Assembly: GCA_007376805.1 (NCBI GenBank)
Contig: VMGX01000001.1
Coordinates: 1,034 to 65,033 of the forward strand
Origin: Parcubacteria group bacterium Athens0714_16
GTDB lineage: Bacteria > Patescibacteriota > Minisyncoccia > Phycocordibacterales > 21-14-all-36-13
Direction: 5' to 3'
DNA length: 64,000 nucleotides
Shown here piece by piece: positions 3,771-58,811 of this stretch. The notes below the pieces were generated by a model. That model was not told the DNA's origin and did no database searches. It saw only the letters and a program-made list of their open reading frames with translations. Both the position numbers and the translations under genes were made by a program. Each line of letters begins with the position of its first letter. The first letter of the stretch is position 1.

Positions 3771-6700
3771 ATGAATCCCAAATTTACACATCTCCACACT
3801 CACTCTCATTACAGCTTGCTTAATGCATTACCAAAAATACCGGAACTTGTTTCTGCTACAAAAGAAAAAAATATGAGCGCCGTTGCTCTTACTGATAACG
3901 GAAATCTTTATGGTGCAATTGAATTTTATAAAGAATGTAAAAAAGAAAACATAAAACCAATTATAGGTGTTGATTTTTATGTTGCACTTCGCACACGGCA
4001 CGATAGACAACCAGGGATTGATAGTAAAAGATACAGATTGGTGTTGTTAGCAAAAAATCATGATGGATATAAAAATTTAATAAAATTAGTAAGTGATTCA
4101 CATCTTACTGGTTTCTATTACAAACCAAGAATAGACAAAGAACTAATGAAAAAATATTCTGAAGGACTTATTGCAATAATTCCATCTTTTAGTGGAGAAA
4201 TAATAGAAAAAGTAAAAAACAGTGATTTTGAAACAGCAAAGAAAATTTTAAATGAGTATGAAGAAATTTATGGAAAAGAAAATTTGTTTGTAGAAATTAC
4301 ACATCACCCAGAAATTGACGGACATAATTTTATAACGAAAAAAACAATTGAATTTGCAAAAGACCTGTCCGCCTCTGGCGGAAGTGGAGCAAATTTAGTG
4401 GCATCACATGATGTTTATTATATACACCCAGAAGATAGAGAGGCACGAAATACACTTTTATCTATACAAACAAATCTTGACTTTGGCTCCAATAAACGAC
4501 TAACAAGCGAAGATGAGGACTTTTCTTTTATAGGACAAGAACAGGCAGAAAAATATTTTGCTGAAATTCCCGAAGCACTTGAAAACACACAAAAAATTTC
4601 TAACATGTGTAATTTAGAAATTAGTCTTGGTGGCTGGATCTTCCCTGAGGCAAAATCTACCAACGGATTAAACCATGATGACGAATTGTATAAATTAATA
4701 TACGACGGTTTAATTGAAAGAAAATTGGAAAAAACAGAAGAAGTTTTAAAAAGAATTGAATACGAGTATGGAATAATAAAAAAGAAAGGATATTGTCCAT
4801 ACTTTTTGGTTGTTAGTGATTTATTAAAATTCGCATTAAAAAATAACATCTTTACAAACACCAGGGGTTCTGCTGCTGGCTCACTTGTTTCTTATTTAAT
4901 TGGAATAACAAATATAAATCCTCTTGAATATCAAATTCCATTTGAAAGATTTTTAAATCCCGATAGGCCTTCGCTCCCCGATATAGATATTGATATGGCA
5001 GATAACAGGCGAGATGAAATGGTTCAATATGCAAAAGAAAAATATGGAGAAGACAGAGTCGCACAAATTGGGACATTCGGAACAATGGCAGCACGAGGAG
5101 CAATTCGTGACACAGCACGAGCATTAGGTTATCAATATGAAATCGGAGATAAAATATCAAAACAGATTCCTCTTGGGAAACAAGGTTTCCCAATGACAAT
5201 AGATAGAGCACTGGATGAAAATTCTGATTTGAAAAAAATGTACGCGACAGATAAAGACGTTAAAAAAATTGTAGATATGGCAAGAAAAATTGAAGGATGT
5301 GCAAGACACATTTCCGTTCATGCAGCAGGTATCGTTATCTCTCCAATTCCAGTAACAGAGTTCACACCAATTCAATTTGATCCGAAGGGTGGAAAATTAA
5401 TAACACAATATGATATGTATTCTATAGACCCCGACTATGGTGGTGTAGGACTTTTAAAATTTGATTTTCTTGGTTTAAAAAATCTCTCAATACTCGCAAG
5501 CTCAGTTGATTTAGTAAAAAAAATAAAAGGTGTGGATATTGATATACAAAATATTCAAATTGATGACAAAAAAACATTTGAGATGTTGGCTCGTGGAGAA
5601 ACTATGGGCGTATTTCAAATGGGTAGTGATGGGATGACAAAATATTTAAAAGATTTAAGACCGACCGAAATAAGAGATATAAACGCAATGATTGCTCTTT
5701 ATCGTCCCGGCCCGATGGCTTTTATTCCTGAATATATTAAAAGAAAAAGAAATCCTAAACTTGTAAAATATATTGACGAGAGATTAAGAAAAATTCTTGA
5801 AAAAACTTATGGGATTTTGATTTACCAGGACGATATTCTACTTATAGTCACAGAGCTTGCTGGCTATTCTTGGGCAGAGGCAGATAAATTTAGAAAAGCT
5901 GTTGGGAAAAAAATTCCACAAGAGATGCAAGCGCAAAAAGAAAAGTTCACCAGTGGTTGTATCAAAAACGGGATGAAACCAGATGTTGCAAAACAACTTT
6001 GGGAAATGATTGAAACATTCGCGGCATATGGTTTTAATAAGGCCCATTCTGTAAGTTACGGCAGAGTTACATATCAAACTGCTTACATGAAAGCTAATTT
6101 CCCTGTTATTTATATGTCCGCACTTCTAACCGCAGATGCAGGAGATGTTGAAAAAATTTCCGAAACAATTAACGAATGTAAAAGAATGGGGATTGAAGTT
6201 TTGCCCCCAAACATAAATGAAAGTTTTGGTAATTTTACTGTTATAGAAGAAGACGGAAAAGACAAAATTCGTTTTGGACTTTACAGTATCAAAAACTTTG
6301 GGGAAGGTATCGCTGATAAAATTATTACTACAAGAAAAGAGAGCGGTAGATTTAACTCGCTGGAAGATTTTTTAAATAAAGTAAAAGATAAAAATGTAAA
6401 TAAAAAATCTTTAGAAGCACTCATAAAATGTGGTGCCATGGATGAACTTGGTGAACGAGGACAAATGTTTGAAAATGTAGAAGATTTATTGTTGTATCAT
6501 CGCGAAGGGAAAAAAACAGACGAATCACAGGAGTCGTTGTTTGGTTTGATGGCAGATAGTTCAACAATACCAAAACTAAAACTCAATGAATCAATGCCCG
6601 CAACACAAACTGATAAGCTAACATGGGAAAAGGAACTGCTTGGTTTATACATTTCCGGACACCCACTTGATAAATTCAAAAACCAGCTCGAAAAAAGACA

Positions 6701-10948: not shown

Positions 10949-11173
10949 CTACAATTTTCCAATTTCTTTTAAATCTTTATCGGGTATATATAAAACTAAA
11001 AGACCAATCACAATCCCAACAATTCCACTATATAATGGGTTTATATTAAAAAATGAGTCAAAACTATCTAAAATATACCAAACACCACGCCAAACAAGAA
11101 CAAGCCCAATAACTACGGCAACATTTTTAGAAAAATAATTAATTAGAGATATTTTTTTTTGTTCTGTATTCAT
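10949..11173 (-). CDS. Small two-TM membrane protein
   Basis: 74-aa ORF with two hydrophobic helices. Its ATG abuts repeat A2. Confidence 0.4.
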   Translation of the reverse strand: MNTEQKKISLINYFSKNVAVVIGLVLVWRGVWYILDSFDSFFNINPLYSGIVGIVIGLLVLYIPDKDLKEIGKL

Positions 11174-11391
11174 CCTGTAGTGAAAAATGGCATTATTCTA
11201 AAAGAACGCGACCATTCTTACTATTAATACTAATAAAAAACTTATCCTGTGGTAAAATTATTTTTAATATTTTATATTTACGAGCTAATTTTATAAAAAA
11301 TATTACCTGCCCCGTGAAATTTAAAAACTATTTCACTGGGGTGGATTCAAAAGCTCATTCATCGCTTTTGAATTTTTACTACGGGATTCAT
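11174..11391 (-). mobile_element. Family A element, copy A2 (218 bp, carries extra nested hairpins; abuts ATG of 10949..11173)
   Basis: Same left end and the same terminal ctactacgggattcat. The interior has ccccgtgaaat/atttcactgggg and attcaaaagc/gcttttgaat hairpins. Confidence 0.75.
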
Positions 11392-11430: not shown

Positions 11431-11552
11431 CAAAACTCTCTAAATGAGAGTTTTGATCCATAATGCTTTGTTTTTTTGAAACTCTCTAAATGAGAGTTTT
11501 GATCCATAATGCTTTGTTTTTTTGTTTTTTTGAAACTCTCTAAATGAGAGTT
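11431..11552. repeat. Tandem repeat (about 46-54 bp x 2.5) of hairpin plus GATCCATAAT motif
   Basis: aaactctctaaatgagagttttgatccataatgctttgttttttt repeated. ORF 11430..11612 over it is spurious. Confidence 0.85.
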
Positions 11553-11622
11553 ATAAGTATTTAAATTTGATTTGTGTTTAAAAAGAAAACGGCCATTTGG
11601 CCGTTTTATCAATAAAAAAATC

Positions 11623-11910
11623 CTATTTCTGAGATGGTAAAATATTATTTTTTACCAAACTCGCAACAAACACTTCGTTGTCATCATTCCCATTGTCATT
11701 TTGCCCGGGAAAAAGACGAAAACAATTGTTGCTTTTACAATCAATCAAAAAACCTTTTCTTTGGACCAAACAGGAACAGACACAACATTTTTTTTCTTGT
11801 GGAAGTATAGTCCCAGCATTTATAGATTCTCTGGGTTCTCCTAAAACTTCCGAAACAATTCCCATAACATCTCTGAATGTTCCATCAGCAATTGCTTGGT
11901 TCAGATCCAT
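11623..11910 (-). CDS. Hypothetical Cys-rich protein
   Basis: 95-aa ORF with a CCVCSC...C..NNC cluster. Terminator at 11581..11610. Confidence 0.35.
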   Translation of the reverse strand: MDLNQAIADGTFRDVMGIVSEVLGEPRESINAGTILPQEKKCCVCSCLVQRKGFLIDCKSNNCFRLFPGQNDNGNDDNEVFVASLVKNNILPSQK

Positions 11911-12002
11911 AACTCCTCTCCTTGTGTATTTTGGTTTTTAACAAAACAACGGTTCTTTTTGAATATATCACTGTTTTTAAACAAAAACAAACTCTGAAAT
12001 AT

Positions 12003-12033
12003 AAAAACACACAACTTTCTGTTGTGTGTTTTT
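12003..12033 (-). terminator. Rho-independent terminator after the tRNA-Ala 3' segment
   Basis: acacacaac tttct gttgtgtgt with a U-run on the minus strand. Confidence 0.7.
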
Positions 12034-12040
12034 ATATTTG

Positions 12041-12053
12041 TGGACCAGAGAGG
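12041..12053 (-). other. Detached 3' segment of tRNA-Ala(UGC): T-stem 3' strand, acceptor 3' strand and discriminator
   Basis: CCUCU CUGGUCC A pairs with GGGGG (two G:U) and with GGGCCAG, giving G3:U70. A terminator hairpin follows at 12003..12033. Confidence 0.7.
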
Positions 12054-12165
12054 ACTCGACACAGGTCTCTAATTCGCTACGCTCATAAGAGCCTGTCGTC
12101 ACGACTCGGCGACAAGCACTCGCTTTGCTCGTCTTGTATACCGCCTCCGTCTTTCGAGTCCTAAC
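12049..12165 (-). repeat. Repeat X, distal copy (117 bp), ends in the true tRNA-Ala T-stem strand
   Basis: 116/117 identical to 15909..16025; the single difference is 12064 g versus 15924 a. Confidence 0.95.
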
Positions 12166-12312
12166 ACATCATATAAAACTTCAAACCGCTTGAAAAGCTA
12201 TCTTTCTAGATTTTGGATCTATTATAATTCAAGTCCAAAACTACAAAATATGCTTATAAATGCTTAAGGAGTTATTTATGAAAGGGGCACAAAGAGAGTA
12301 TTGAATTATTTA

Positions 12313-14052
12313 TCAACTAATTTTAAGTTTTTCTGCCCAGCAGTTTTTATTTTCTTCGTCTGGCACTGCAATTACCAATAATCTGCTCGGACGAGATATT
12401 GCCACATAGACATTTCTTAATTCTTCCTCTTCAGATATTTTACTGTTAGCTAACATAGTTTTGTAAGATTTCATCACTTTCTTTTTAAGAAATACAAGAA
12501 CTGCTTCAAAAGTTTCTCCTTTCACTTTATGAATTGTGCTAGGTCTATAGTCTGTTGGGACACTGTCAATATGTTCTTGTGGAAAGAGTTGAGAAAATTG
12601 TGCCTCCTTTAGGTTTTGATTTATTTTTAATTCAAATTCGTAATTTTTAGAACTAATGACTAAATTTGCTTCAGCTATCCACGCTCCAAGTCTAGTTGCA
12701 CTAACTGCTTTTGGGAGTAATTTTACAAATTTATATAACTCTTTTCTTAAGTTGCTAAATCCTCGTTCTTCAACAAACATATTAAAATTTTCTTCTGAAA
12801 AGTATGAGATGTTCTGTGTTGCCTTTAAGAAACCTCTTTCAATATATTTCATACCTCTAATAAAATCATTTCTATCATATAGGAACTTACCAAGAGCAAA
12901 ATCTCTGGTAAATGGAGATCCAACTAGCCAAGGACTTTCTCTATTGGGATTAGAGATAGCTTGTGTAAAAAAACTTTTTGACCTAAATAACACAGCTACA
13001 TTTTTAGGATTAAATTCAATACCATATTCCTTACACTTATTCTTGAAACTATTTAAGGTGGATTTTTTACCAGTAATAGTCTCCTCGTATGTCCATATTT
13101 CAGGACAGATATCACAGTCTTTTACTTTTTTATTAGTGGCAATGATTTTTCTTTCTCCTAATGAAGAAAAATTATAGACGACATCACATATTTTTTGTGA
13201 ACTACGCCAACTTTCATCTAGAATAATAGAATTGTTTTTCCAGTCCTGTTCTTTTTCTATGAATAAACTGGGTTTTGCGTCATTCCACTCAAATATAGCT
13301 TGATCTGGGTCGCCCACAATCATTATATTTTCCAAACCAGATTTTACAATAATATCTATGATTTGCATTTGTATTTCGGTGGTATCTTGTGCTTCATCAA
13401 TAATGAAAACAGGAAATCTTAAAGCCAATGATCTAGCAATTTTAGGATACTGCTCTAATATCTTTAATGCAAAATAGTTTGCATCTGCTTGAGTTGCAAA
13501 ACCCTTCTCATTAAAATCTTTCTTCATTTTTTGTAGTTTTTCATAATGACCATTCACTGTTTTTCCATTAGCATTTATTTTATTAGGAAAACCACCGAAG
13601 AAGTATTGAGCATCATTTTTTGGACACAAATCACCGTCTATTTTGTAACTAACTTTATCAAAGTATCTATTATAGTCTCTTTCATAAGCACCACCATTCC
13701 AAATACCGTATGGTTCTCCAACCATTATTGGGCGTTTTTCACAACCCAGAACAAGATGTCCAAACGGGAGAAAAATATATTGATTTATAAAACTATCAAT
13801 CGTGCCTAAAAAATGTGGGTAAGAAATGTGTGTATCAAAATCTTTTATACAGTTATCTCTTATTTCTTGCCAAGCAGTATTGGTAAAAGATATAGTAGCT
13901 ATACCTTTATATTCTTCAGTCCATTCAGATATTAACTTTGAGAATTTAGCTGAAACGCAGTATGTTTTACCGCTACCTGGACAAGCACGAACAACAAATT
14001 TTCCAGTTTTTCCTAAAACCTCTCTTTGTTTGTCTGATAATTTACTGAACAT
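12313..14052 (-). CDS. gajB: UvrD-like superfamily 1 helicase, GajB-like
   Basis: Walker A ACPGSGKTY, DEAQD box (FIIDEAQDT), and C-terminal VHKVKGETFEAVLV. It starts 3 nt after the gajA stop. Confidence 0.75.
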   Translation of the reverse strand: MFSKLSDKQREVLGKTGKFVVRACPGSGKTYCVSAKFSKLISEWTEEYKGIATISFTNTAWQEIRDNCIKDFDTHISYPHFLGTIDSFINQYIFLPFGHLVLGCEKRPIMVGEPYGIWNGGAYERDYNRYFDKVSYKIDGDLCPKNDAQYFFGGFPNKINANGKTVNGHYEKLQKMKKDFNEKGFATQADANYFALKILEQYPKIARSLALRFPVFIIDEAQDTTEIQMQIIDIIVKSGLENIMIVGDPDQAIFEWNDAKPSLFIEKEQDWKNNSIILDESWRSSQKICDVVYNFSSLGERKIIATNKKVKDCDICPEIWTYEETITGKKSTLNSFKNKCKEYGIEFNPKNVAVLFRSKSFFTQAISNPNRESPWLVGSPFTRDFALGKFLYDRNDFIRGMKYIERGFLKATQNISYFSEENFNMFVEERGFSNLRKELYKFVKLLPKAVSATRLGAWIAEANLVISSKNYEFELKINQNLKEAQFSQLFPQEHIDSVPTDYRPSTIHKVKGETFEAVLVFLKKKVMKSYKTMLANSKISEEEELRNVYVAISRPSRLLVIAVPDEENKNCWAEKLKIS

Positions 14053-14055
14053 AAA

Positions 14056-15813
14056 TTATTCATTTTTAGCAACATATTTTATAGCTTTTTCAATATATTT
14101 AGGGATGATAAAGTTATCAAAAGCCGATTGATCATTTTCTAGTCTAACCGCTAATCTGTGAGCTAATTCTGATTTTGATTTTTGATCATCAACTTTGTCA
14201 GCAAAATTCTTTGCATAAATTTTTTCATCTTTGTCTGGTGTTATTACTGTTAATGGATGAAATTCTTTATATATTTCTAATAATAATGTTTGATTATATT
14301 TACTTGCCAAAAAAAGCTCATATTCAAAAGTCATTTCTCCAGTAAAAACTTTTAATAAGCCAGTTTCTAATGTTTTTACTTTTCCTGCTCTTGTAGAACC
14401 ATCATCATTGATATTTTTCCTATCATCATCTGTTATAACGGCACAACGATGATTTATTCTTTTTTGTGAGTCAGATGAATTAAAAAGTTTTGCAAAGTGT
14501 TCAAAAGCAACCCCGTTTATATTTACAACTTCAATTCCAAGATTGTTAAGAAAATAATTTATACCTATCTTTTTACTGAAAATTGGTAATAATAATGACT
14601 CTGATATTCCTTCTACTAGGATTGTTCCATTTGCAAAGAATAACTGTGATTTTGTGACATCTAAAAATTTTTGAAGGAATTTTTTATTATTTTCATTTAG
14701 TTCAGAGTTTATTACAGAAAGAGCAAAAGTTTCATTTGATATATGTTGTAAAACAATCAAGGAGTCTAGACCAGCTTTTGCTGTTATTGTTGGAGAATGA
14801 GACGAAACAAAGGTCTGAAAATTTTGATTAGTAGAAAGTTCTGACAAATAATTAAAAAATAGGTTTTGTAGCTGTGGATGTAAGTGAGCTTCTGGTTCTT
14901 CAATTAAAAGTGAAAAATAAGAGTTTGAGTCTTTTTCTTTTTTTTGTTTTATGTCTCCTAAAACAGTAGCTATATATATTAAATTGTTATACCCCAAACC
15001 ATTCTGCCAAATACTCAAATAGCGTTGTTCGTAAGTAGGGTCTTTATCAAGAATATCTTTATCAAAAACTGGTATTTGTATATGTAGATTGTTAAGTATT
15101 TCCGCAAAACCAAGTCCACTAAAACTAATTTCTATTTTTTGAGTTTTATCAGAAAATGTAGTTTTATCTAAATGTTCACAGACTTTTTCTTTACCTTTAT
15201 TTATAAAATCTTTCCAATTTTCATTTTCTAACACCGTTTTTATTTCTTTTACCAATCCTTTTTTCTGCTCTTCTGTGTATGTTTCAATCTCGGAATAAAG
15301 TCTAGATAATTTACTATCTTTAAATGGTTTCAAAAACTGTTCTGCGTCTCGGAGAGCTCCCAAATGAACATAGTTAATTAACTGTAATACCTCATTAGAT
15401 ATTTGCTGTCCTTCATTTTCTCCACCCCATATTTTATATTTTAACTTTCCTTTTACATCTAAATAATATCTTATATGTAATTGTAGACTTGTTTCTCCAT
15501 TATCCTCATCAATTGTTAACATTTCTCTAAAAATTGCAGTTTCTGACTCATCTTCTATAACAAAAAGTAAATCAAATTTAACTTCATTTGTAATTTGAGC
15601 TGGATTGGTTCTGTCAATGTGAAAATCATTTTCTTTTGAAAAATATATATCTCTTCGTAAACTTCCCCAACCAAGAGATAAGCGTAAAGCATCAACGATT
15701 GCAGTTTTTCCAACATTGTTTTCTCCTACTAAAATATTGAGTCCTTTCTTAAAATGGAGAATGAGGTCTTTTACTGTTCTATAGTTTTGTATTCTAAAAT
15801 CTCTTAAATACAT
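14056..15813 (-). CDS. gajA: OLD-family ATPase plus Toprim nuclease, GajA-like
   Basis: From ATG 15811-15813: MYLRDFRIQNYRTVKDL..LVGENNVGKTAIVDAL (ABC/AAA15-type Walker A), LLIEEPEAHLHP (Walker B/D-loop), and Toprim ILVEGISE ... AVITDDD. The track start at 15924 runs into repeat X and is rejected. Confidence 0.8.
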   Translation of the reverse strand: MYLRDFRIQNYRTVKDLILHFKKGLNILVGENNVGKTAIVDALRLSLGWGSLRRDIYFSKENDFHIDRTNPAQITNEVKFDLLFVIEDESETAIFREMLTIDEDNGETSLQLHIRYYLDVKGKLKYKIWGGENEGQQISNEVLQLINYVHLGALRDAEQFLKPFKDSKLSRLYSEIETYTEEQKKGLVKEIKTVLENENWKDFINKGKEKVCEHLDKTTFSDKTQKIEISFSGLGFAEILNNLHIQIPVFDKDILDKDPTYEQRYLSIWQNGLGYNNLIYIATVLGDIKQKKEKDSNSYFSLLIEEPEAHLHPQLQNLFFNYLSELSTNQNFQTFVSSHSPTITAKAGLDSLIVLQHISNETFALSVINSELNENNKKFLQKFLDVTKSQLFFANGTILVEGISESLLLPIFSKKIGINYFLNNLGIEVVNINGVAFEHFAKLFNSSDSQKRINHRCAVITDDDRKNINDDGSTRAGKVKTLETGLLKVFTGEMTFEYELFLASKYNQTLLLEIYKEFHPLTVITPDKDEKIYAKNFADKVDDQKSKSELAHRLAVRLENDQSAFDNFIIPKYIEKAIKYVAKNE

Positions 15814-15908
15814 AAGATATATTTTACCACATTTTGTCAAAAAAATCTTGAAAAAAATAGAAAAACTTACAAATACGATGTTGAAAACCAAAGAGAGAAT
15901 GAGATCAT

Positions 15909-16025
15909 AGAGGACTCGACACAAGTCTCTAATTCGCTACGCTCATAAGAGCCTGTCGTCACGACTCGGCGACAAGCACTCGCTTTGCTCGTCTTGTATA
16001 CCGCCTCCGTCTTTCGAGTCCTAAC
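15909..16025 (-). repeat. Repeat X, proximal copy (117 bp), fused to the tRNA-Ala T-loop
   Basis: It starts right after UUCGAGU of the tRNA. Its first bases (UAGGACUCGAA) are an inverted copy of the T-loop. It is followed by AUGAUCU, a decayed CUGGUCC. Confidence 0.95.
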
Positions 16026-16083
16026 TCGAACCCCCTACCTCCTCAGTGCAAGTGAGGCGCTCTACCAGGTGAGCTACTGGCCC
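16024..16083 (-). tRNA. tRNA-Ala(UGC), positions 1-60 only (interrupted after the T-loop)
   Basis: GGGCCAG UA GCUC ACCUGGUA GAGC G CCUCA CUUGCAC UGAGG AGGUA GGGGG UUCGAGU, then repeat X instead of the T-stem 3' strand. Confidence 0.8.
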
Positions 16084-16151
16084 ATTTGTTTTTATAACAC
16101 AATAATTCTACACGATTTTATTATAATTACAATAATAAACGTGTAAACAAA

Positions 16152-17147
16152 TTAATACAAAGTAAGATTTATAAGATGATTTATAAAACTTGGTAAACCT
16201 ACCCCAACCTCATTTAATTCTCTAACGAAAGGAGCATTTTCAGACAGGTCTGGCAAAGCATTCGTTTCCAACAAATAAATTCCCCTTCTTGGAGAAACAA
16301 TAAAATCAGATCTTGAGTAGTGTCTAAGATTCAAAACATTATGTGCTTTGTTCGCTATTTTTTGTACATCTTTTTTTAAACTTATGGGCAAACTTGTTGG
16401 ACATGAAAATGTTGTACCACCCGCCTGAGCGGGCAAGTCTTTTTTAGAATAATCAAAAAAATCTTCACCCTTATTTAATATTATTTCCAAAGGCATCAAC
16501 TCATATGTTTCTTCATTTCTAAAATTATCAATTACTCCACATGTGATTTGTTTTCCTTCTATAAATTCCTCAACTAAAATAGTCTCATATTTATTTAATA
16601 AATCTCCTAAAGAGAAAAGTAATGTATCGAAATCTCTCGCAACAAAAATATCATTTGAAGAGCCCCCAGAAACAGGCTTCATAATTAATGGTATACCAAA
16701 TCCCCTAAATATATCCAAAGCAATTTTTTCAACCTCCAAATCATTTTTTACAATTATATATCTAGGTGTTTTTAGCCCCGCATTTTCAAATATTTTTTTT
16801 GCAAAATATTTATTAAAACTCATAAGTGATGGCAACGCCCGAGAACCTGTGTATGGTATAGAAAAATTATTAAGAACTCTCTGTAGAGAACCGTCCTCAC
16901 CAAAATCACCGTGTATAGAATTTATAACTAAATCTACATCTCTCAATATTTTTTCTGGACTTGTTTGAACACCTCTAAGATTCCAAGATAAGTCTTTTGA
17001 AATAATTACATCTTTGACGATGTATTCTTTGGGTATATTTTTAATAAAGGATACGCCTGTATTTAAAGATAGTCCGCGTTCTTTCCCCGGACCACCCCGA
17101 AGAAGACCAATTTTTATTTCTTTTCCAGAATCAATAAAGTTTTTCAT
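16152..17147 (-). CDS. ddl: D-alanine--D-alanine ligase
   Basis: ATP-grasp fold (IPLIMKPVSGGSSNDIFV, LVEEFIEGKQITCGVI) and C-terminal SRSDFIV...YLLETNALP. Confidence 0.9.
   Translation of the reverse strand: MKNFIDSGKEIKIGLLRGGPGKERGLSLNTGVSFIKNIPKEYIVKDVIISKDLSWNLRGVQTSPEKILRDVDLVINSIHGDFGEDGSLQRVLNNFSIPYTGSRALPSLMSFNKYFAKKIFENAGLKTPRYIIVKNDLEVEKIALDIFRGFGIPLIMKPVSGGSSNDIFVARDFDTLLFSLGDLLNKYETILVEEFIEGKQITCGVIDNFRNEETYELMPLEIILNKGEDFFDYSKKDLPAQAGGTTFSCPTSLPISLKKDVQKIANKAHNVLNLRHYSRSDFIVSPRRGIYLLETNALPDLSENAPFVRELNEVGVGLPSFINHLINLTLY
16420..16443. repeat. GC-rich hairpin module H3 inside the ddl CDS
   Basis: cccgcctgagcgggcaagtctttt, 21/24 identical to 683..706, and also encodes KKDLPAQAG. 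Confidence 0.8.
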
Positions 17148-17282
17148 CCTGTAGTGAAAAATGGCATCGCTCTAAAAGAGCGCTGCTATTCTTGTTATTA
17201 ATATTGATAAATTTTCTTTCATGATATTACTTATTTTTGATATTTTCTTTCTCTTAATGCCATTTTCTACTACGGGATTCAT
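17148..17282 (-). mobile_element. Family A element, copy A3 (abuts ddl ATG)
   Basis: Same termini as A1, 135 bp. Confidence 0.8.
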
Positions 17283-17385
17283 CCACAATATTATACAATA
17301 AAAAATTTATTTAAATAAGTCTGCCGGTTGATTTTTCTCTAAAATAGGGATAATATCCAAAACAGAAAATATAGGAGTTTGGAAT

Positions 17386-24294: not shown

Positions 24295-25263
24295 CTACTT
24301 CTTTAATTCTTTAATGAATAAATCTCTAAGAAGTTTTATCTCGTTATCGTCATATAGTGATATTGCAATAACAATTGGACATTTTTTCTCTAGTTTTTTA
24401 ATAATTTTATCTATTTGTTTTTTATCGTCAATTAAATCTGTTTTTGTTAAGACAACAATTTCTTTTTTATTCAAAAGTTCCTTATCAAATTGTTCAAGTT
24501 CTTTTCTTATTGTTTTATAAGCACCCTCAACATCTTCATTTTCCAAAGAAATTAAATGGACAAGCATTTTCGTTCGTCTAATGTGTTTTAAAAATTTATG
24601 CCCGAGTCCTTTCCCTTCTGATGCACCTTCAATAAGCCCCGGAATATCCGAAATTATATACCCATAAAATTCTCCGAGATTTGGTTCAAGTGTTGTGAAT
24701 GGATGCGCACCAACTTTTGCGTTAGCGTTTGTAATCGCATTCAACAAACTCGATTTGCCAGCATTTGGAAGTCCTATCAACCCAATATCTGCAACAAGCT
24801 CAACTTCAATATAAAAATCAGCTTCCTCTCCCGGCCACCCATTTGTAAATTCTTTTGGACTTCTGTTTGTTGAACTTTTATAGTGTTCGTTCCCGCGACC
24901 ACCGGCACCTCCTTTAAGTAATAATAATTTTTCGCCCTCTTCAAGAAGTGATACTTTTTCACCTGATCTTATATTTGTAATAACAGAGCCAATCGGAAGT
25001 AAAATTTCCAAGTCAGTCCCAACGGCGCCGTGCAAACTTTTTTTCATACCATCACCACCTCGTTCGGCAACAAATTCTTTTTTTGTGCGATATTTAGATA
25101 ATATTTGTGAATCACGAACAGCCGTGGCAATAACATTACCGCCGTAACCACCATCACCTCCCGAAGGACCGGCAAACTCTTTCCCCTTTTCATGACGCCA
25201 ACGAACAACACCGTCGCCACCATCACCAGCTTTCGCATGTATTTTTAATTCATCTATAAACAT
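24295..25263 (-). CDS. obg: GTPase Obg (short form)
   Basis: MFIDELKIHAKAGDGGDGVV Gly-rich Obg fold, then G1 GLPNAGKSS, DIPGLIEGA, TKTD. Confidence 0.9.
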   Translation of the reverse strand: MFIDELKIHAKAGDGGDGVVRWRHEKGKEFAGPSGGDGGYGGNVIATAVRDSQILSKYRTKKEFVAERGGDGMKKSLHGAVGTDLEILLPIGSVITNIRSGEKVSLLEEGEKLLLLKGGAGGRGNEHYKSSTNRSPKEFTNGWPGEEADFYIEVELVADIGLIGLPNAGKSSLLNAITNANAKVGAHPFTTLEPNLGEFYGYIISDIPGLIEGASEGKGLGHKFLKHIRRTKMLVHLISLENEDVEGAYKTIRKELEQFDKELLNKKEIVVLTKTDLIDDKKQIDKIIKKLEKKCPIVIAISLYDDNEIKLLRDLFIKELKK

Positions 25264-25292
25264 AACTTAATATTACATTATTAAATGAATAT

Positions 25293-26411
25293 TTAATAAT
25301 TTGTGATTTTTTCTAAAGTTGGCTTTGTCATCACATTTATAATATTAAAACGTAATCGCCCAACAACATCTCCATGTGAAGTTTCAACATTAACGCGCCA
25401 TTTGCCCGGAACTAACCCTTCTTGCATTGAGTATGTTCTATAGCCATTTTCACGCCCACCAGTGACCTTGAGGTCCACAGTGCTCACAGTGACCCATTTG
25501 CCACTTGTTTCATCATAGTGCTCCCAAACATGGATAATATCTGCATTTATGAGTGTCGGGGAAAATATTGAACTATATGCATAAATTGGAGAATTTGGCG
25601 TTTTGTGAAAATCTTCATAAAATTTAAAATAATCACTCCATTTTTTGTTTTCTTGTTCGGCTAAATAATTTCCACTCACGTCTCTAGTGATTGAGTGATA
25701 AACGCCAGCGTCTTTCAATGAAAGTGGAATTGGTGGAATAAGTTTCAAAAAATATAAAATGTTCGTAATGAAGAAAATTCCAAAAATTGAAATTAAAAGT
25801 ATTTTTTTACTCTTATGAAATTTTTCTCTACCAAAATACCCGAGAATTAAAATAAACAAACCAATCAAAACCAAACTCACGGCACCGCTTAATAAAAATA
25901 CATCCTGACCAATTCTGTGTAATACAACTGGAACTATAAAAATCGCAAACAAGAAAATAGACAAATAAAACAAAGTAATTTGAAAACTAATTCTAGAATA
26001 ATGTTTCTTAAGAGATTCGTTCGCTGTAAACGCCGCTAAAAGAATTAATAAGAATGGCCAGCTCACAAGCAGTGTTGAACTTCTGAAATAAAATACTAGA
26101 AAAACGCTCAACAGCCCACCAAATGTAAACTGTAAAATATTTATGAGCCAAAAATGAATCTTGTCTGGGTCTTTTGGATCAATACCCTCCATTTCCTTAC
26201 GATTTATCATCACTATACAAACCGCAACAACCAAGAAGTGAATTATAATCCAAAAATTTTCCCACAATGTGTCCACGCGTTTTAATGTGATCGCATCAAA
26301 AACGAATCCGCTCACAAGCGAAAAAGATGAAATTGGTCTTTCAAATCTCGTGAAAATTTTTACTGCATATTTAACAAAAAATAAATTTCTGATTTTATTT
26401 AAAAAATTCAT
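25293..26411 (-). CDS. Multi-pass membrane protein with C-terminal soluble domain
   Basis: About 7 hydrophobic helices, then a beta-rich C-terminus (GKWVTVSTVDLKVTGGRENGYRTY..GKWRVNVET). Reminiscent of DUF2914-type proteins, from memory only. Confidence 0.45.
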   Translation of the reverse strand: MNFLNKIRNLFFVKYAVKIFTRFERPISSFSLVSGFVFDAITLKRVDTLWENFWIIIHFLVVAVCIVMINRKEMEGIDPKDPDKIHFWLINILQFTFGGLLSVFLVFYFRSSTLLVSWPFLLILLAAFTANESLKKHYSRISFQITLFYLSIFLFAIFIVPVVLHRIGQDVFLLSGAVSLVLIGLFILILGYFGREKFHKSKKILLISIFGIFFITNILYFLKLIPPIPLSLKDAGVYHSITRDVSGNYLAEQENKKWSDYFKFYEDFHKTPNSPIYAYSSIFSPTLINADIIHVWEHYDETSGKWVTVSTVDLKVTGGRENGYRTYSMQEGLVPGKWRVNVETSHGDVVGRLRFNIINVMTKPTLEKITNY

Positions 26412-26485
26412 GATTATAATTAATAATTATATCATCTTCTTAAAATTTATTTTAAAAACAAAAAGGCATCATTTTATGATGCCTT

Positions 26486-27083
26486 TTATTTAACACATTC
26501 TCTAATTACAGAACAAAATTTTAAAAGTTCTTTTTTATCGTTTATAAGTCTTTCTCTCATACCACGACTTATTTCAATTTGAACACCTTTCAATTTGAAC
26601 ACCTTTCCCGGAGATACATTTGTTACAAATATTTTTAGGTGAATCGCCCATAACATTTTTTGTTGATTCAAGAACTTTAAACCCACCATTTGTTAGAACG
26701 TCTTCAATATCTTTAATAAGTGAGTAATCAAGTCCTCCCAACATAACAAAATCATCTAATTCGTGTTTTCCGTGTATTGAAATTACTTTTTTACTTTTAG
26801 AAACCAAATCAAGACATTTTGGTTCATCAAAAGTAGAACTTGAAACATGAAAAATTGTATTATTTTTTTCTTTTATTCCTTGAAAACTATAAAAAGCAAA
26901 AATGTTTCCAGCCAATTCTCTAGCAATTTCAGTTGTGTGTGGTTCTATTCTCCCGCCATGAATAGCAATTACAACACATGGTGTTTTTATGTCGTTTGTC
27001 TCAATTTGGAAATCAACACCCTCTGTCTCGTTTTCTTTTATTTCTTCAAAATTTTTGTATGTTCCTGACATTTTGTTCTCCAT
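26486..27083 (-). pseudogene. Poly-gamma-glutamate hydrolase-like (UPF0714/DUF867-like) gene, frameshifted by a 16-bp tandem duplication
   Basis: VVIAIHGGRIEPHTTEIARELA resembles that family. The reading frame ends at 26574 just after the duplicated 16-mer. Removing one copy joins it in frame to ORF 26486..26689 (..KGVQIEISRGMRERL..). Confidence 0.55.
26572..26603. repeat. 16-bp perfect tandem duplication (ttcaatttgaacacct x2)
   Basis: Read directly. It explains the frame change between ORFs 26574..27083 and 26486..26689. Confidence 0.9.
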
Positions 27084-27153
27084 TCAATGTTAAAAAACTA
27101 TTTTCAATGGTCTTTATATCACAAAATAATCATAAAAAGCAATTTTTCAAAAT

Positions 27154-27552
27154 TTATTTTTTTATTTTTTCTGCAATTTTAAGTTTACCAAGATAATATT
27201 GAACGCCCAATACGTGATTTGGCACATGCCACACGGCAACAGCTTGACCAGCTGAACGAGCTATAAATTTTGCAAAATCTGATTTAGATTTGCGAGCTGA
27301 CGCATGTGAGTCAAGTGAAAGTTTACGCACAGAGGGCATACCTAATTCCATTTTCCCCTGTGCCCATGCTCTGAGTAATTCTATAGCTTTGCGTGGATGT
27401 TTGTCTTTTGGATATTCCTTTTCAAAAATTGGTAGAACGCGCTCCACTTGTTTAACAACTTTGAGGGCTAATAATTTGTGTTCGTGTGAATTACGCACCA
27501 AAGATTTATAATCTTTAGATTTTGAAGGTTTTGAAAATTTTTTTGCTTTCAT
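27154..27552 (-). CDS. Hypothetical helical protein
   Basis: 132-aa ORF, basic N-terminus, no firm family assignment. Confidence 0.4.
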   Translation of the reverse strand: MKAKKFSKPSKSKDYKSLVRNSHEHKLLALKVVKQVERVLPIFEKEYPKDKHPRKAIELLRAWAQGKMELGMPSVRKLSLDSHASARKSKSDFAKFIARSAGQAVAVWHVPNHVLGVQYYLGKLKIAEKIKK

Positions 27553-27564
27553 TGGTTATTTTTT

Positions 27565-27596
27565 CTATTCTCTAATTCCGTTGGATTAGAGAATGG
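27565..27596. repeat. Hairpin family H2 (overlaps the arsR stop)
   Basis: ctattctctaattccgttggattagagaatgg. Confidence 0.8.
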
Positions 27597-27852
27597 ATAA
27601 AATATGTTTAATAAAAATATCATTTTTATCTGCTATAAAATAATATTGTTCCAAACCAACTTGTTCACTCTCAACAAAACCAGATGTTTTCAATACTTGC
27701 AGATGTCTAGATGTCGCATTGAATGATAGCTTCATTTTTTCTGCAATCACACCAACAGTGGATTTTGATTCTTTCGCCAAAAAATTAATTATTTCTAAAC
27801 GACGACGATTTGCTAATGCTTTGTATTTTCTTTCAACTTCACTATATTTCAT
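27586..27852 (-). CDS. ArsR-family winged-helix transcription regulator
   Basis: From ATG 27850-27852: MKYSEVERKYKALANRRRLEIINFL..STVGVIAEKMKLSFNATSRHLQVLKTSGFV. Its last codons lie inside hairpin repeat H2. Confidence 0.75.
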   Translation of the reverse strand: MKYSEVERKYKALANRRRLEIINFLAKESKSTVGVIAEKMKLSFNATSRHLQVLKTSGFVESEQVGLEQYYFIADKNDIFIKHILSIL

Positions 27853-27906
27853 ATTTAATATTATACAAAAATATATTATTAATAAAACCTTATACACATA
27901 TTATTT

Positions 27907-27938
27907 CCATTCTCTAATTCCGTTGGATTAGAGAATGG
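27907..27938. repeat. Hairpin family H2 (upstream of arsR)
   Basis: ccattctctaattccgttggattagagaatgg, 31/32 identical to 27565..27596. Confidence 0.8.
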
Positions 27939-27953
27939 AGATTTGTATGAAAA

Positions 27954-28415
27954 TCATTTTATAAACCCTCCGTGAAAAATTGCGTAATAAATAAGTTTCC
28001 CATCTTTCAGGATTTCTTCCCTTCCTTCAAATTTACCGAGTGTGCCTAAAGTGTTATTTTTATACTCATAATTCTCAATTTTAAAATTTTTTGGTCCGCG
28101 AACTGGAATAATGTCATCATAGTCTTGCGCAAGTGCTTTTCTTAAAAAAATGTAGATATCTTTCTCGTTCTCCTTTTCATCAATAATATATCCATTGTAA
28201 TTCATACCCCAAATTGGCTTTCCGTTTTCATATATAATTTCTTCGCCAATAAAATCGTGTGAACCGAAATATGTATCATGATATAAAAACTCTCCTTCTT
28301 TATATTCGTAATCTTTTGAACCAGATTTTTGCGAAGTAATTCTTTTTGCTTTTTCAGAAGCATAAGTATTTTTCTTCGCTGTCTTCAAAAAATTTGTTAG
28401 TTTATTTAAGTTCAT
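27954..28415 (-). CDS. Hypothetical protein (DUF5680-like, from memory)
   Basis: Start moved to ATG 28413-28415 (MNLNKLTNFLKTAKKNTYAS). Contains YHDTYFGSHDFIGEEII..GKPIWGMNYNGY. Confidence 0.45.
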   Translation of the reverse strand: MNLNKLTNFLKTAKKNTYASEKAKRITSQKSGSKDYEYKEGEFLYHDTYFGSHDFIGEEIIYENGKPIWGMNYNGYIIDEKENEKDIYIFLRKALAQDYDDIIPVRGPKNFKIENYEYKNNTLGTLGKFEGREEILKDGKLIYYAIFHGGFIK

Positions 28416-28932
28416 GGTTTTTGAGATTTCTGTAACCAATAATTGCAAACGGTATTGATATAATTTGAAGTATTAAAATTGAATAAGTTCCTAAAATGTA
28501 GGCATATGCGATTAAAATTATATGACCTGCTATATAGAGAAGCCAACCAATTGGATTTCGCAAAACTAAAAATACTGCACCAATGACAAACAATACAACC
28601 ATACTGTCTTCCAATACCCAATTTGGCGATCCTAAATTAAATAAAAAGATTACTACAATACCTATAATAGTTATACCACCCATAAGAAATGTGAGCCGTT
28701 TTTCCACTTTTTCAAATTTTTGCCATAAAAAAAATCCAAAAACAAATATAATGCCACTGGTAATTTCCAATATTGAATATGCAAAAGATCCTTTATGTAA
28801 AGTAACTAATGTAAAAGCAATTGAACCTAAAAATCCAAATAACCAACCCAATCTTTTTCCAGAACTCAAGAATACCTTTTGTATAAAATAAAAAATAGAA
28901 CCTAAAATTTCTATAATAACAAAATAATTCAT
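28402..28932 (-). CDS. Six-TM small membrane protein, possibly PnuC-like transporter
   Basis: 176 aa and very hydrophobic. The resemblance to nicotinamide riboside transporters is weak. Confidence 0.35.
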   Translation of the reverse strand: MNYFVIIEILGSIFYFIQKVFLSSGKRLGWLFGFLGSIAFTLVTLHKGSFAYSILEITSGIIFVFGFFLWQKFEKVEKRLTFLMGGITIIGIVVIFLFNLGSPNWVLEDSMVVLFVIGAVFLVLRNPIGWLLYIAGHIILIAYAYILGTYSILILQIISIPFAIIGYRNLKNHELK

Positions 28933-28935
28933 AAA

Positions 28936-29229
28936 CTATATTAGAAAAAGTGAAATCAAAAAGAGAATTACAAAACAAGCGAAAAATCCGACAGTTTTGA
29001 TGAAGAAAGAGAATGCTTCTTGTTTTTGATTTTCCATATAAAGATGAATTGGTTCAGACAGAAATAGAAATCCCATAATTGAAGCTGATAATACAAAAAG
29101 ACTCAACATAATCATAGGAATAATTATGGGGTCATCGTGCACCAAAATAAGGGTCACAATATTAATAACCAAAACAATAACAACAATATATAGTGCTGCT
29201 GCTATCGCATATAAAAATGGTTTCTTCAT
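28936..29229 (-). CDS. Small three-TM membrane protein
   Basis: 97-aa hydrophobic ORF. Its ATG abuts repeat A4. Confidence 0.4.
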   Translation of the reverse strand: MKKPFLYAIAAALYIVVIVLVINIVTLILVHDDPIIIPMIMLSLFVLSASIMGFLFLSEPIHLYMENQKQEAFSFFIKTVGFFACFVILFLISLFLI

Positions 29230-29363
29230 CCTGTAGTGAAAAATGGCATTACTCTAATAGAGTATTACTATTCTTGTTGTTAATGCTAATAAATTTTCTT
29301 TCGTAAAATTGTTCATTTTTTAATATTTTTTATATTCATGCCATTTTCTACTACGGAATTCAT
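29230..29363 (-). mobile_element. Family A element, copy A4 (abuts ATG of 28936..29229)
   Basis: Same termini (right end ctactacggaattcat), 134 bp. Confidence 0.8.
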
Positions 29364-29381
29364 AATAATTTAATTAAATTT

Positions 29382-29861
29382 TTAATCTTTAATAAATAAA
29401 ATTTTTCTACCAGTTTCATTTTGCATTGATTTAATTAAATTTTCTCCTTCTTTTGAATAAATCCAAGCATATAAAGATGCATTCTTAGCATTTGGAATTT
29501 TTTCGAAAGCTTCTTTTATTAATCCTTTTGCATATCCCCTTTGTCTATACTCTGGCAAAACAAAAACAGCGCAAAGATAAAGCGACTCAAACTTTTTTTC
29601 TTCTGTTGCAATATTCAAAAGTTCCTTTTCTGTAATTTCTTTTTTGAGAAATTTATTCATTGTATCTACACTTGTGGGAACAACAACAATCCACGCGATT
29701 GGATCTCCTTTTTCATTAAATTTGAAAATAATAGTGTCTTTGTGTATTAAATGAAGTTTATCTGTCGAATCTTGATTTATTGGAATTTGATTTGGGTCAT
29801 TCTGTGTACCAAAAAATTCTTCTGCAATTTTTCTTACTTTTTCTGAAGTACCTTGGTTCAT
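29382..29861 (-). CDS. GNAT-family N-acetyltransferase
   Basis: Acetyl-CoA motif A-like VLPEYRQRGYAKGLIKEAF. Confidence 0.7.
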   Translation of the reverse strand: MNQGTSEKVRKIAEEFFGTQNDPNQIPINQDSTDKLHLIHKDTIIFKFNEKGDPIAWIVVVPTSVDTMNKFLKKEITEKELLNIATEEKKFESLYLCAVFVLPEYRQRGYAKGLIKEAFEKIPNAKNASLYAWIYSKEGENLIKSMQNETGRKILFIKD

Positions 29862-29961
29862 AAAAATTAATTTCTAAGACAGAAAATAGGGACTCGGTCA
29901 CAAATCACTAATTATTTTTACAACAAAGTTGAAAAAATAAATAAGTGTTTGCCGACCCCAA

Positions 29962-30019
29962 CTCAGCGACAAGCACTCACTTTGCTCGTCTTGTATACCG
30001 CTTCCGTCTTTCGAGTTCC
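29962..30019 (-). repeat. Partial X-like repeat about 60 nt downstream of tRNA-Gln
   Basis: GGAACTCGAAAGACGGAAGCGGTATACAAGACGAGCAAAGTGAGTGCTTGTCGCTGAG matches the first ~58 nt of X with 5 mismatches by eye. Confidence 0.8.
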
Positions 30020-30079
30020 AATCCACACGAGCAATCGAGTGGAATTTTTAACACATAGCTATGTTAAAAATTTCGCTTG

Positions 30080-30150
30080 CTGGGGGATAGGGACTCGAAC
30101 CCCAATACCTTGCGCCAAAGGCAAGTGTCCTACCATTAGACGATCCCCCA
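30080..30150 (-). tRNA. tRNA-Gln(UUG)
   Basis: UGGGGGA UC GUCU AAUGGUA GGAC A CUUGC CUUUGGC GCAAG GUAU UGGGG UUCGAGU CCCUA UCCCCCA G. It has the U1:A72 pair that I recall as typical of bacterial tRNA-Gln. Confidence 0.85.
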
Positions 30151-57338: not shown

Positions 57339-57507
57339 CAAAGTAATTGGGGAATAAGCAAATTTCCTCCAGAGACGGACAAGTATTTGCTTATGTCGGG
57401 AATCGAATGATTTTTTATGTTGAGCGTAGCGAAACAAAAAATCACGGGTGAGCAAAGCGAAATTCCCCCTGCCTGCGCAGGCAGGGCCCCGGGCACAAAG
57501 TGATTGG
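57339..57507 (+). repeat. tRNA-Leu(UAA) 3'-flank element ending in a duplicate of the tRNA 3' end
   Basis: 57329..57350 (gccccgggcacaaagtaattgg) recurs at 57486..57507 with 1 mismatch. The interior has stems ATAAGCAAAT/ATTTGCTTAT, TGATTTTTT/AAAAAATCA and GGGAAT/ATTCCC. Confidence 0.8.
57467..57486. repeat. GC-rich hairpin H3 (perfect 7-bp stem) inside the tRNA-Leu(UAA) flank element
   Basis: ccctgcctgcgcaggcaggg. Confidence 0.75.
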
Positions 57508-57635: not shown

Positions 57636-57778
57636 CATGAAGTGTCCTGCGCGAGAAAACAAATTTATTTGTTTTTGTGTAGGATTTGAAAGGAATTTCG
57701 TTATTGAGTCCGAGTTTTTGCAAGGACGAAATCGAAATTCACCAGCGACCGTTGGGCGAAAATCCTACCGGGCGGACA
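57636..57778 (+). repeat. tRNA-Lys 3'-flank element ending in a duplicate of the tRNA 3' end
   Basis: 57619..57637 (aaatcctaccgggcggaca) recurs exactly at 57760..57778. Confidence 0.85.
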
Positions 57779-57838
57779 AAAAATAGTATAGTGGTCATAA
57801 AATATAAGTTTATTTTCAATTATTTTTTTAAATTAATA

Positions 57839-58607: not shown

Positions 58608-58758
58608 CATGAACGAAGTGAGAGTGACGAGAGTAAACAAATTTATTTGTTTGCGAGAGAGGATTTGAAAATCTTTTCGTTATTTATGAAGAGCTTTGCT
58701 CTGAATAAATCGAAAAGATGAACAGAATCTGTAAGATTCAAGTCCTCTCCCCGGCACC
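58608..58758 (+). repeat. tRNA-Leu(UAG) 3'-flank element ending in a duplicate of the tRNA 3' end (distal copy followed by CCA)
   Basis: 58588..58608 (ttcaagtcctctccccggcac) recurs exactly at 58738..58758. Homologous to the Lys element. Confidence 0.85.
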
Positions 58759-58811
58759 AGTAGTAACTTGTTGAAAATTGAAAATTAAAAAATTAAAATA
58801 AGAAATTTGCT

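Follow-up and report, generated by a model that had tools for sequence, protein, structure and literature searches.

Genomic islands inserted by integrases carry their cargo within tRNA genes, bracketed by direct repeats that contain the segment from the T-loop to the 3' end of the gene, and defence genes gather at such tRNA-adjacent sites. For tyrosine integrases, a T-loop sublocation of the crossover within tRNA genes was reportedly described by Williams in 2002. Here we describe a locus that resembles these islands, found in a 64,000-nucleotide (nt) stretch of contig VMGX01000001.1 of Parcubacteria group bacterium Athens0714_16 (this whole stretch is hereafter called the window). A Gabija defence operon, composed of gajA and gajB, lies there between two copies of a 117-nt repeat, X, and the whole arrangement interrupts a tRNA-Ala(UGC) gene at its T-loop. 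The locus shares with the integrase islands the defence cargo within a tRNA gene, the T-loop breakpoint and the direct repeats with a tRNA 3' segment at both ends. It differs from them in that there is no integrase in or near the insert, nor a recombinase cluster by about 100 loci bearing X. Moreover, its repeats are structured and 117-123 nt long instead of forming a simple att core, the tRNA gene has not been restored, and the X family is mostly free of cargo.

tRNA halves encoded apart are known from the split tRNAs of Nanoarchaeum, and interruptions of the T-loop from non-canonical introns in Thermoproteales. The present case has both traits in common with these archaeal genes, but it concerns a bacterium, shows neither a bulge-helix-bulge motif nor complementary leaders, is flanked by direct rather than complementary repeats, and represents a derived state that was seen once. 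Other parallels concern X itself. The E. coli tyrT distal repeats, known with the rtT RNA (RF00391), are tandem units located after a tRNA, each ending in a 19-nt copy of the tRNA 3' end. The attP(+) hairpin of the phage CTX-phi is used by XerCD, and the attC sites of integrons work similarly as folded single-strand sites. Finally, REPIN/RAYT and MITE-type elements are short, structured, multi-copy intergenic repeats without proteins of their own.

A tRNA-Ala(UGC) gene interrupted by a Gabija operon and two X copies

When nucleotides 16083..16024 and 12053..12041 of the minus strand are joined, they form a clean 74-nt tRNA-Ala(tgc) cloverleaf with a G3:U70 pair (ARAGORN), and the joined halves agree at 73/73 positions with the gene that is intact in L128, the closest relative. 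The split, which had been read from the letters alone in a first-pass annotation, is thereby upheld. ARAGORN did not call the gene as it stands, interrupted, in the window, and the 5' portion of the gene scored 24.8 bits with the Rfam tRNA model, which is below the gathering score. This portion holds the 5' strand of the acceptor stem, the D arm, the anticodon arm, the 5' strand of the T-stem and the T-loop. The gene breaks after T-loop position 60 and before T-stem position 61; as the six bases TCGAGT stand on either side of the insertion, the breakpoint is uncertain by 6 nt. Between the halves there are 3,970 nt, with X, gajA, gajB and X in this order. The gene is not contiguous, and X matched no Rfam intron or ribozyme model that would speak for an intron of a kind that bacteria can remove. 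The features of the locus, in the direction of transcription, are as follows (scores of X refer to the covariance model R1).

16120..16147, minus strand: promoter-like site 5' of tRNA-Ala (TTTACA, 16 nt, TATAAT; 11/12 matches in a simple promoter scan)
16024..16083, minus strand: tRNA-Ala(UGC) 5' portion, positions 1-60, identical to positions 1-60 of L128
15909..16025, minus strand: X copy 1 (X1, proximal), fused straight to the T-loop; 98.8 bits
15821..15840, minus strand: likely gajA promoter, TTGACA with an extended -10 element TGgTAAAAT, read from the sequence and not flagged by the simple scan
14056..15813, minus strand: gajA, OLD-family ATPase with a Toprim domain (Pfam AAA_15 6.1e-35, OLD-like_TOPRIM 3.7e-14)
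12313..14052, minus strand: gajB, UvrD-like superfamily 1 helicase (Pfam UvrD-helicase)
12166..12200, minus strand: spacer preceding X copy 2, with TTCAAgcggtTTGAA as a small hairpin and then TTTTAT, resembling the spacers of canonical X units and of L128
12049..12165, minus strand: X copy 2 (X2, distal), whose 3' arm continues into the original tRNA 3' end; 114.4 bits
12041..12053, minus strand: tRNA-Ala 3' portion, positions 61-73, CCUCU CUGGUCC A, which completes the cloverleaf
12003..12036, minus strand: native tRNA-Ala terminator, a hairpin with a T-run, read by eye; a homologous hairpin lies directly 3' of the intact L128 tRNA

The terminator after 12041 had also been proposed at first sight. 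It is visible by eye and conserved in L128, though the simple terminator scan did not flag it.

The two proteins matched the PADLOC hidden Markov models of GajA (1.8e-153, full length, residues 1-584) and GajB (3.5e-184, residues 1-576), which agrees with the system named in the first-pass annotation. Both genes are located on the same strand, gajA before gajB with a gap of 3 nt, and they are the only protein genes between the X copies. As claimed earlier, neither the open reading frames (ORFs) nor Pfam revealed an integrase or transposase between the repeats. The cassette is a self-contained Gabija operon with its own likely promoter, bracketed by two X copies. In comparison with Gabija elsewhere the proteins themselves are ordinary, having the same full-length profiles and the same order of gajA followed by gajB, and they should act like those in other bacteria.

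The direct repeat extends over 123 nt with 98% identity (12043-12165 and 15903-16025). Within it, the 117-nt X copies are nearly identical, as first noted: they differ at one base (C versus T), and this difference turns a G-C pair into a G-U pair within a helix supported by covariation. The guanine plus cytosine (GC) content of X is 54%, against 31.5% for the window. X is the sole homology available for insertion or excision of the cassette.

The split state is derived

The D-Ala-D-Ala ligase (Ddl) encoded upstream in the window shows 100% identity to a protein of Parcubacteria group bacterium Athens0714_16. In L128, whose Ddl is 88% identical, the same promoter is followed by an intact tRNA-Ala and the same terminator. 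Intact tRNA-Ala(UGC) genes also stand beside ddl in L129 (Ddl 83% identical), L130 (71%) and L006 (78%), and the sequence upstream of the tRNA, promoter included, precedes the intact gene in L129 as it does in L128. Relatives with an uninterrupted gene, which the first-pass annotation had proposed to look for, do therefore exist, and since all four carry it at the same position, the split state is derived. In L003, L004, L005 and L001, the assemblies end 70-340 nt past ddl, at or just past the terminator hairpin. Such breaks after ddl in several independent assemblies of relatives hint that the region may be variable or repeat-rich in related populations.

The exon-like perfection of the two halves (73/73 identity to the relative's gene, G3:U70 kept) and the repetition of TCGAGT at both X ends are compatible with an idea put forward in the first-pass annotation, according to which X is an intervening sequence of tRNA-Ala, removed as RNA and duplicated around the cassette, so that the locus still yields tRNA. 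Patescibacteria are, in fact, rich in tRNA introns, but those known interrupt the anticodon loop and belong to group I (PMC13011429). In the window, the putative exons are separated by 4 kb that contain an operon with a likely promoter of its own, and the proximal X is followed by non-tRNA sequence. When X was removed in silico at 40 X copies without a nearby tRNA, a tRNA was regenerated only at the tRNA-Ala locus of the window (1/40). None of the other copies (0/39) sits inside a tRNA, no further T-loop-fused X was seen among the 40, and the canonical site of X is outside intact tRNAs. X also left the Rfam models of introns of groups I and II and of small self-cleaving ribozymes unmatched. 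The Rfam 15 covariance models (cmscan over 11500-16600 with E up to 10, and over eight canonical loci with E up to 1) returned tRNAs and noise only, with no family matching X at this locus, at the eight canonical loci or in L035. A bulge-helix-bulge splicing endonuclease of the archaeal type is not known from bacteria. Removal of X as an intron is, in our opinion, highly improbable.

Two further repeats occur around the locus. A 69-nt direct repeat, 84% identical, at 11169-11237 and 17143-17211, brackets the region of ddl, tRNA-Ala and Gabija and has an inverted partner at 17255-17300. Each copy stands just 5' of a minus-strand ORF, namely ddl and a 74-aa ORF (10949-11173), and the repeat may act as a leader or promoter common to both. 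At 11433-11578, a short way past the locus in the downstream direction, a 46-nt tandem unit with the hairpin AAACTCTCTAAATGAGAGTTT is present in two perfect copies and one diverged copy.

X is a family of structured elements located downstream of tRNA genes

A scan with the pattern GAAAGACGG-N4-GGTATACAAGA over one genome per species matched more than 117 stretches, with at least 125 hits. Among the matches listed, the records with a lineage name belong to Patescibacteria, namely to Paceibacteria groups and to Saccharibacteria, and a few records bear no other title than 'bacterium'. Most of the listed 125 hits share the strand of an intact tRNA and are found 60-70 nt past its 3' end. About 19 tRNA specificities are represented among these matches, and in two instances the gene upstream of the hit is a tmRNA. 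The covariance model R1 gave 127 hits in 100 of the pattern-matched loci, and extra, more diverged copies were recovered by it 41-45 nt after other tRNAs. Several copies occur per genome, at least six in UBA3458, and L054 carries X after its Met, Asp and Thr tRNAs. In the window the core pattern has 3 matches, versus 0 in 100 shuffles, the third copy being situated about 45 nt downstream of an intact tRNA-Gln (30150..30079):

29878..30034, minus strand: X copy 3; 113.6 bits, arms degenerate

In a canonical unit, the tRNA is followed by a spacer, usually with a terminator-like hairpin, and then by a 5' arm, a core and a 3' arm. The core signature, GAAAGACGG-N4-GGUAUACAAGA...CUUGU...GAGUC together with a three-way junction, is present in all three window copies. 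The stretches GAAAGACGGA, GGUAUACAAGA and GAGUC are invariant and single-stranded, while the helices covary: 88.6% of cells are paired versus 34-39% with slid partners, and the covariation score of 0.427 (versus 0.07-0.13) was reached by 0/500 shuffles. The ratio of G-U to A-C pairs (16 versus 3) indicates that the folding strand of X is the tRNA-sense strand.

Both arms are adjusted to the adjoining tRNA. The 3' arm copies its last 10-19 nt, in most cases exactly over 18-19 nt, and in a second class of X it is shorter and ends near tRNA position 65/66. The 5' arm, with the GAA of GAAAG counted in, reads as the reverse complement of positions 54-73 of the tRNA. The inverted T-loop copy with which X had been seen to start is real, and it proves to be the inner end of this family-wide arm complementary to the tRNA 3' end. 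The duplex energy of cognate 5' and 3' arms averages -20.7 kcal/mol, against -10.9 for non-cognate ones, and in 29/30 cases of a short or diverged 3' arm, the match of the 5' arm to the tRNA is retained. In a test independent of the core, a complementary run of at least 14/18 was found 40-60 nt downstream in 59/192 tRNAs; the upstream control gave 0/192.

The canonical placement, about 45 nt past an intact cognate tRNA and with a complementary 5' arm of about 20 nt, is seen at the tRNA-Gln copy and not at the two tRNA-Ala copies. Each of the latter has merely an 8-nt 5' arm (AGGACUCG), copy 1 abutting the T-loop and copy 2 following gajB. Both terminate in CGAGTCCTCT; the distal copy runs on into the tRNA 3' end, and in copy 1 the 3' arm, CGAGUCCUCU, is followed by non-tRNA sequence. 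Their short 3' arms place them in the class with copies ending near position 65/66. The AUGAUCU behind the proximal copy, once taken for a decayed acceptor strand, matches CUGGUCC at 4/7 positions, which is within chance, and the short 3' arms of other members end at 65/66 as well; this interpretation is not supported.

Accessory genes follow X copy 3 (24300-29870), encoding GNAT, a nicotinamide mononucleotide (NMN) transporter, DUF5680, ArsR, an Imm5-like protein and a poly-gamma-glutamate hydrolase. The relative L001 has a tRNA-Gln without X, yet DUF5680 and helix-turn-helix (HTH) genes are present downstream of it. The apical loops of two X hairpins (15944-15950 and 15966-15972 in the window, and at many loci), and likewise that of the element after tRNA-Leu(taa) described below, are mini-hairpins of the type GC-GNA-GC with tandem G-A pairs on either side (GAGCGNAGCGA). 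In its DNA form, d(GCGAAGC), this mini-hairpin is exceptionally stable, and X may fold as RNA or as single-stranded DNA.

X is a large, Patescibacteria-wide, multi-copy and structured family, and it is apparently undescribed. No account of X-type elements was found in full-text searches of the literature, the nearest publication being that on group I introns of tRNA anticodon loops (PMC13011429), the core pattern had 0 matches in viral contigs, and BLAST gave no match to X in phage and plasmid collections. This is in line with the statement of the first-pass annotation that it knew of no description of such an arrangement, since nothing relevant was found in Rfam 15, in the literature or in these collections. 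With rtT, X shares tandem units downstream of a tRNA that carry copies of the tRNA 3' end; rtT differs in having no tRNA-complementary arm, in being confined to one tRNA locus and in its unrelated sequence, and X had no match to it in Rfam. For the core, hammerhead, K-turn and sso-like readings were considered, as was the likeness of GTTAGGA to GTTRRRY, the core site of integrons; all of them are too weak to be claimed. A retroviral-type primer-binding site was considered for the 5' arm and rejected, as the arm stops at the discriminator base and never complements CCA; a reverse transcriptase gene was not seen beside X either.

The unpaired invariant core bases, the strong covariation and the G-U bias on the tRNA-sense strand are properties expected of a functional RNA. 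The same can be said of the constant orientation of tRNA-adjacent hits, with the tRNA and at a fixed distance of 40-45 nt, of arm boundaries coinciding with tRNA position 54 and the mature 3' end, and of the absence of a mobility gene nearby. X, along with the second family Y presented below, might in that case be a resident 3'-trailer RNA of tRNA transcription units and not mobile DNA. Its closing helix would mimic the acceptor/T-stem minihelix, and would serve processing by RNase P, RNase Z and the CCA-adding enzyme, or the buffering or regulation of tRNA maturation. Gabija would then have entered between two tandem X units by illegitimate or homologous recombination, and a later deletion would have joined the T-loop to X1. 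Tandem X-X arrays that could accept cargo do exist, and the proximal junction shows a 2-nt GT microhomology, as at deletions. However, a terminator-like hairpin usually separates the tRNA from X, and a deletion that killed the only local tRNA-Ala would be selected against. In view of these points and of the distribution described in the next section, we consider a purely resident RNA to be an unlikely, though serious, explanation.

Signs of mobility, a second family and neighbouring defence genes

X units form tandem arrays in L102 (with a 139-nt period), L008, L081 and L014, and truncated or decayed units occur at the tRNA-Gln of the window, in L029 and in L035. At the orthologous tRNA-Gln and tRNA-Ala sites of relatives, X is absent. 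The variable second hairpin of X is more similar among copies of one genome, although these follow different tRNAs, than between genomes (median 0.32 versus 0.16, p = 2e-8). The many copies per genome, their decay, the empty orthologous sites and the within-genome similarity of the variable hairpin are all difficult to reconcile with a resident functional RNA.

A second family with the same layout, which we call Y, is represented in the window by three elements:

57340..57500, plus strand: Y unit following tRNA-Leu(taa), in which GUCGGGAAUCGAA is the 5' arm and the hairpin core precedes a copied tRNA 3' end
57637..57780, plus strand: Y unit following tRNA-Lys(ctt); the tRNA 3' end is copied over 19 nt
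58609..58760, plus strand: Y unit following tRNA-Leu(tag); the tRNA 3' end is copied over 21 nt

Like X, Y consists of an arm complementary to the tRNA 3' end, a core (in Y a hairpin) and a stretch of 10-21 nt copied from the tRNA end, and its core is unrelated to that of X. A Y-like unit also follows tRNA-Ala in L128 (1235-1385); tRNA-Leu(caa) and tRNA-Trp have no such element. The existence of two unrelated cores within one layout points to a common insertion process and not to one RNA function. Between two of the tRNA-plus-Y units there is a free-standing LAGLIDADG homing endonuclease gene (57875-58507, plus strand; Pfam LAGLIDADG_3, 3.7e-09), preceded at about 57840 by the promoter-like string TTGGCAAACGCTATGTGTCTTAG, which occurs again at about 58805.

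Clustering of the genes neighbouring about 100 X loci yielded housekeeping families only, with no shared recombinase, reverse transcriptase or nuclease; no full Pfam survey of these neighbours was made. Defence genes were nevertheless met close to X. The nearest parallel to a defence gene between X-type units is L035 (2345-6172, minus strand). A tRNA-Ser(gct) is followed there by a terminator, a partial complementary arm GGGATTCGAACC, an LmuB-like gene encoding an 819-aa SMC ATPase (PADLOC 2.1e-27) and two tandem cognate X units. In L112 (about 1050-2900) an Old-family nuclease (PADLOC 1.2e-62) and in L062 (about 5330-6300) a type II restriction enzyme (1.4e-24) start 40-400 nt from the 3' arm of X. 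No displaced tRNA 3' ends, which would mark the far ends of islands, were found kilobases downstream of short-armed X copies.

A metagenome scan for the sub-lineage of the tRNA-Ala copies of X gave one ordinary canonical copy beside tRNA-Ser sequences, which has no bearing on the tRNA-Ala locus. This X of the window sub-lineage (GAGUCGUGAC...) lies after tRNA-Ser(gga) on the contig L131 (540-860, minus strand), with a fragment of a tRNA 3' half between the tRNA-Ser(gga) and the X unit. Its second hairpin shows compensatory changes, ACAGG/CCUGU versus ACGAG/CUCGU in the window copy.

X shares with attP of CTX-phi and with attC an inverted and a direct copy of the target that can fold into a duplex-mimicking hairpin, and canonical X units have the order site, rest, inverted site, loop and site. 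Integron cassettes, like the Gabija cassette, are bracketed by two folded sites. The differences are that the target of X is a tRNA 3' end and neither dif nor attI, that the 'loop' of X is its most conserved part, with RNA-like covariation, and that most units are only about 200 nt long. To REPIN/RAYT and MITE-type repeats, X is similar in its tandem and decayed copies and in the greater likeness of copies within a genome; it differs in that its arms are rewritten for each adjoining tRNA and that no RAYT or transposase partner was seen at about 100 X loci.

On the whole, the X family looks more like a non-autonomous, recombination-active repeat than like a single housekeeping RNA, and its conserved core would suit an RNA or a protein-binding site equally well. 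We also put forward, tentatively and with more doubt than conviction, that X and Y are new protein-less mobile elements of Patescibacteria, able to carry cargo, which home to tRNA and tmRNA 3' ends with a recombinase supplied in trans. Homing could rely on the 20-nt arm pair, which copies the target both ways, and integration could proceed as a folded single strand or be RNA-guided. The layout of site, rest, inverted site, core and site is what would be expected, at a guess, if a circular single strand integrated via a folded hairpin mimicking the target.

Origin of the split locus

Based on these observations, we suggest, with a probability of roughly 55%, that X and Gabija were inserted by recombination at CGAGT/CCTCT, with Gabija as cargo and the tRNA gene disabled in the process, X being a recombination-active repeat aimed at tRNA 3' ends. 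The site CGAGT/CCTCT, which the T-loop/T-stem of the tRNA has in common with the 3' arm of X, would have been used twice. One event would have brought a unit of X with gajAB and the other X alone. The X-alone unit (X1) would correspond to TAGGACTCG...GTGTCGAGT, and the cargo unit to CCTCTATGATCTC-gajAB-spacer-X2. If both were inserted at CGAGT/CCTCT one after the other, whichever came first, the observed sequence would result exactly. As neither unit would have brought replacement positions 61-73, the tRNA was left broken and not restored as at canonical sites. The two X copies may now permit the cassette to loop out or to be swapped by homologous recombination, and excision would leave one X within the T-loop. 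The split tRNA-Ala gene has most likely lost its function, and a further tRNA-Ala(UGC) gene would be expected at another place in the genome. By an alternative route, gajAB could have entered a tandem X array, after which a deletion at the 2-nt GT microhomology would have fused the T-loop to X1.

The first-pass annotation had offered, as one of its two readings, that X is a recombination landing pad in the T-loop which captured a defence cassette. The association of X with tRNA T-loops and 3' ends bears out one part of this proposal. The other part needs revision, for X is not specific to this locus but exists in more than 125 copies, normally downstream of an intact tRNA.

Several points weigh against insertion as the origin of the locus. 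The T-loop fusion is single, and the proximal tRNA/X junction had 0 matches in JGI metagenome contigs, which means that the fusion rests on one assembly. Neither a recombinase nor a reverse transcriptase or transposase was linked to X at about 100 loci, so that mobility has no known engine; neither an excised circle nor an empty/filled pair with exact boundaries was seen, and X is missing from the viral, phage and plasmid collections searched. The closest GajB homologue, among 5.8 billion proteins, has 59% identity, and the closest homologues (at most 59%; L124-L127) are located in unrelated contexts with neither X nor a tRNA-Ala, so that a travelling X-gajAB cassette has not been seen twice. 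Two X copies require two insertion events, and a dead tRNA-Ala(UGC) is acceptable only if the genome contains a second copy. Lastly, the invariant unpaired core bases and the constant co-orientation with the tRNA fit a co-transcribed functional RNA equally well.

The dependence on one assembly calls for a further explanation to be weighed, in which part of the arrangement would stem from the assembly. In that case tRNA(1-60)-X-tRNA(61-73), or even an intact gene, would be located on the chromosome, and X-gajAB would be a separate element, circular or differently located, threaded into the contig via the 123-nt repeat. When a repeat can be entered in two ways and left in two ways, one of these exits leading back to it, an integrated cassette and a chromosome plus a circle should give the same assembly graph, and with a 123-nt repeat these two states are indistinguishable without spanning reads. 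The sole differing base lies about 20 nt or less from the right-hand flank and provides no linkage between the left and right flanks; the junction, as mentioned, was not recovered in other datasets. On the other hand, the T-loop and X share only 2-6 nt proximally and 11 nt distally, which is too little for a k-mer misjoin. X interrupts the T-loop even in this scenario, and a 3.86-kb circle devoid of replication and integration genes would not persist. We find such an assembly product improbable. If an episome did exist, its circle junction would run from the gajB spacer through X to CCTCTATG, with no tRNA flank.

Implications

A Gabija operon, and likewise a defence island in a tRNA gene, is ordinary; what is unusual in this case is the X bracket and the unique fusion of X to the T-loop. 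If insertion is the correct explanation, the locus illustrates that a defence operon can enter a tiny, streamlined genome of the candidate phyla radiation (CPR) without a visible integrase, at the price of a tRNA gene.

The X bracket also exposes a phylum-wide family of elements, absent from Rfam 15, in which each copy is tailored to the adjoining tRNA. X and Y leave behind fragments of tRNA 3' ends, and in a single instance a split gene, overlooked by standard tRNA finders, and this affects tRNA inventories of CPR bacteria and claims of 'missing tRNAs'. Should these elements be mobile, they would represent a new route of targeting to safe harbours, and possibly a programmable tRNA-directed insertion system; should they be functional RNAs, they would constitute an unrecognised layer of tRNA biology in Patescibacteria.

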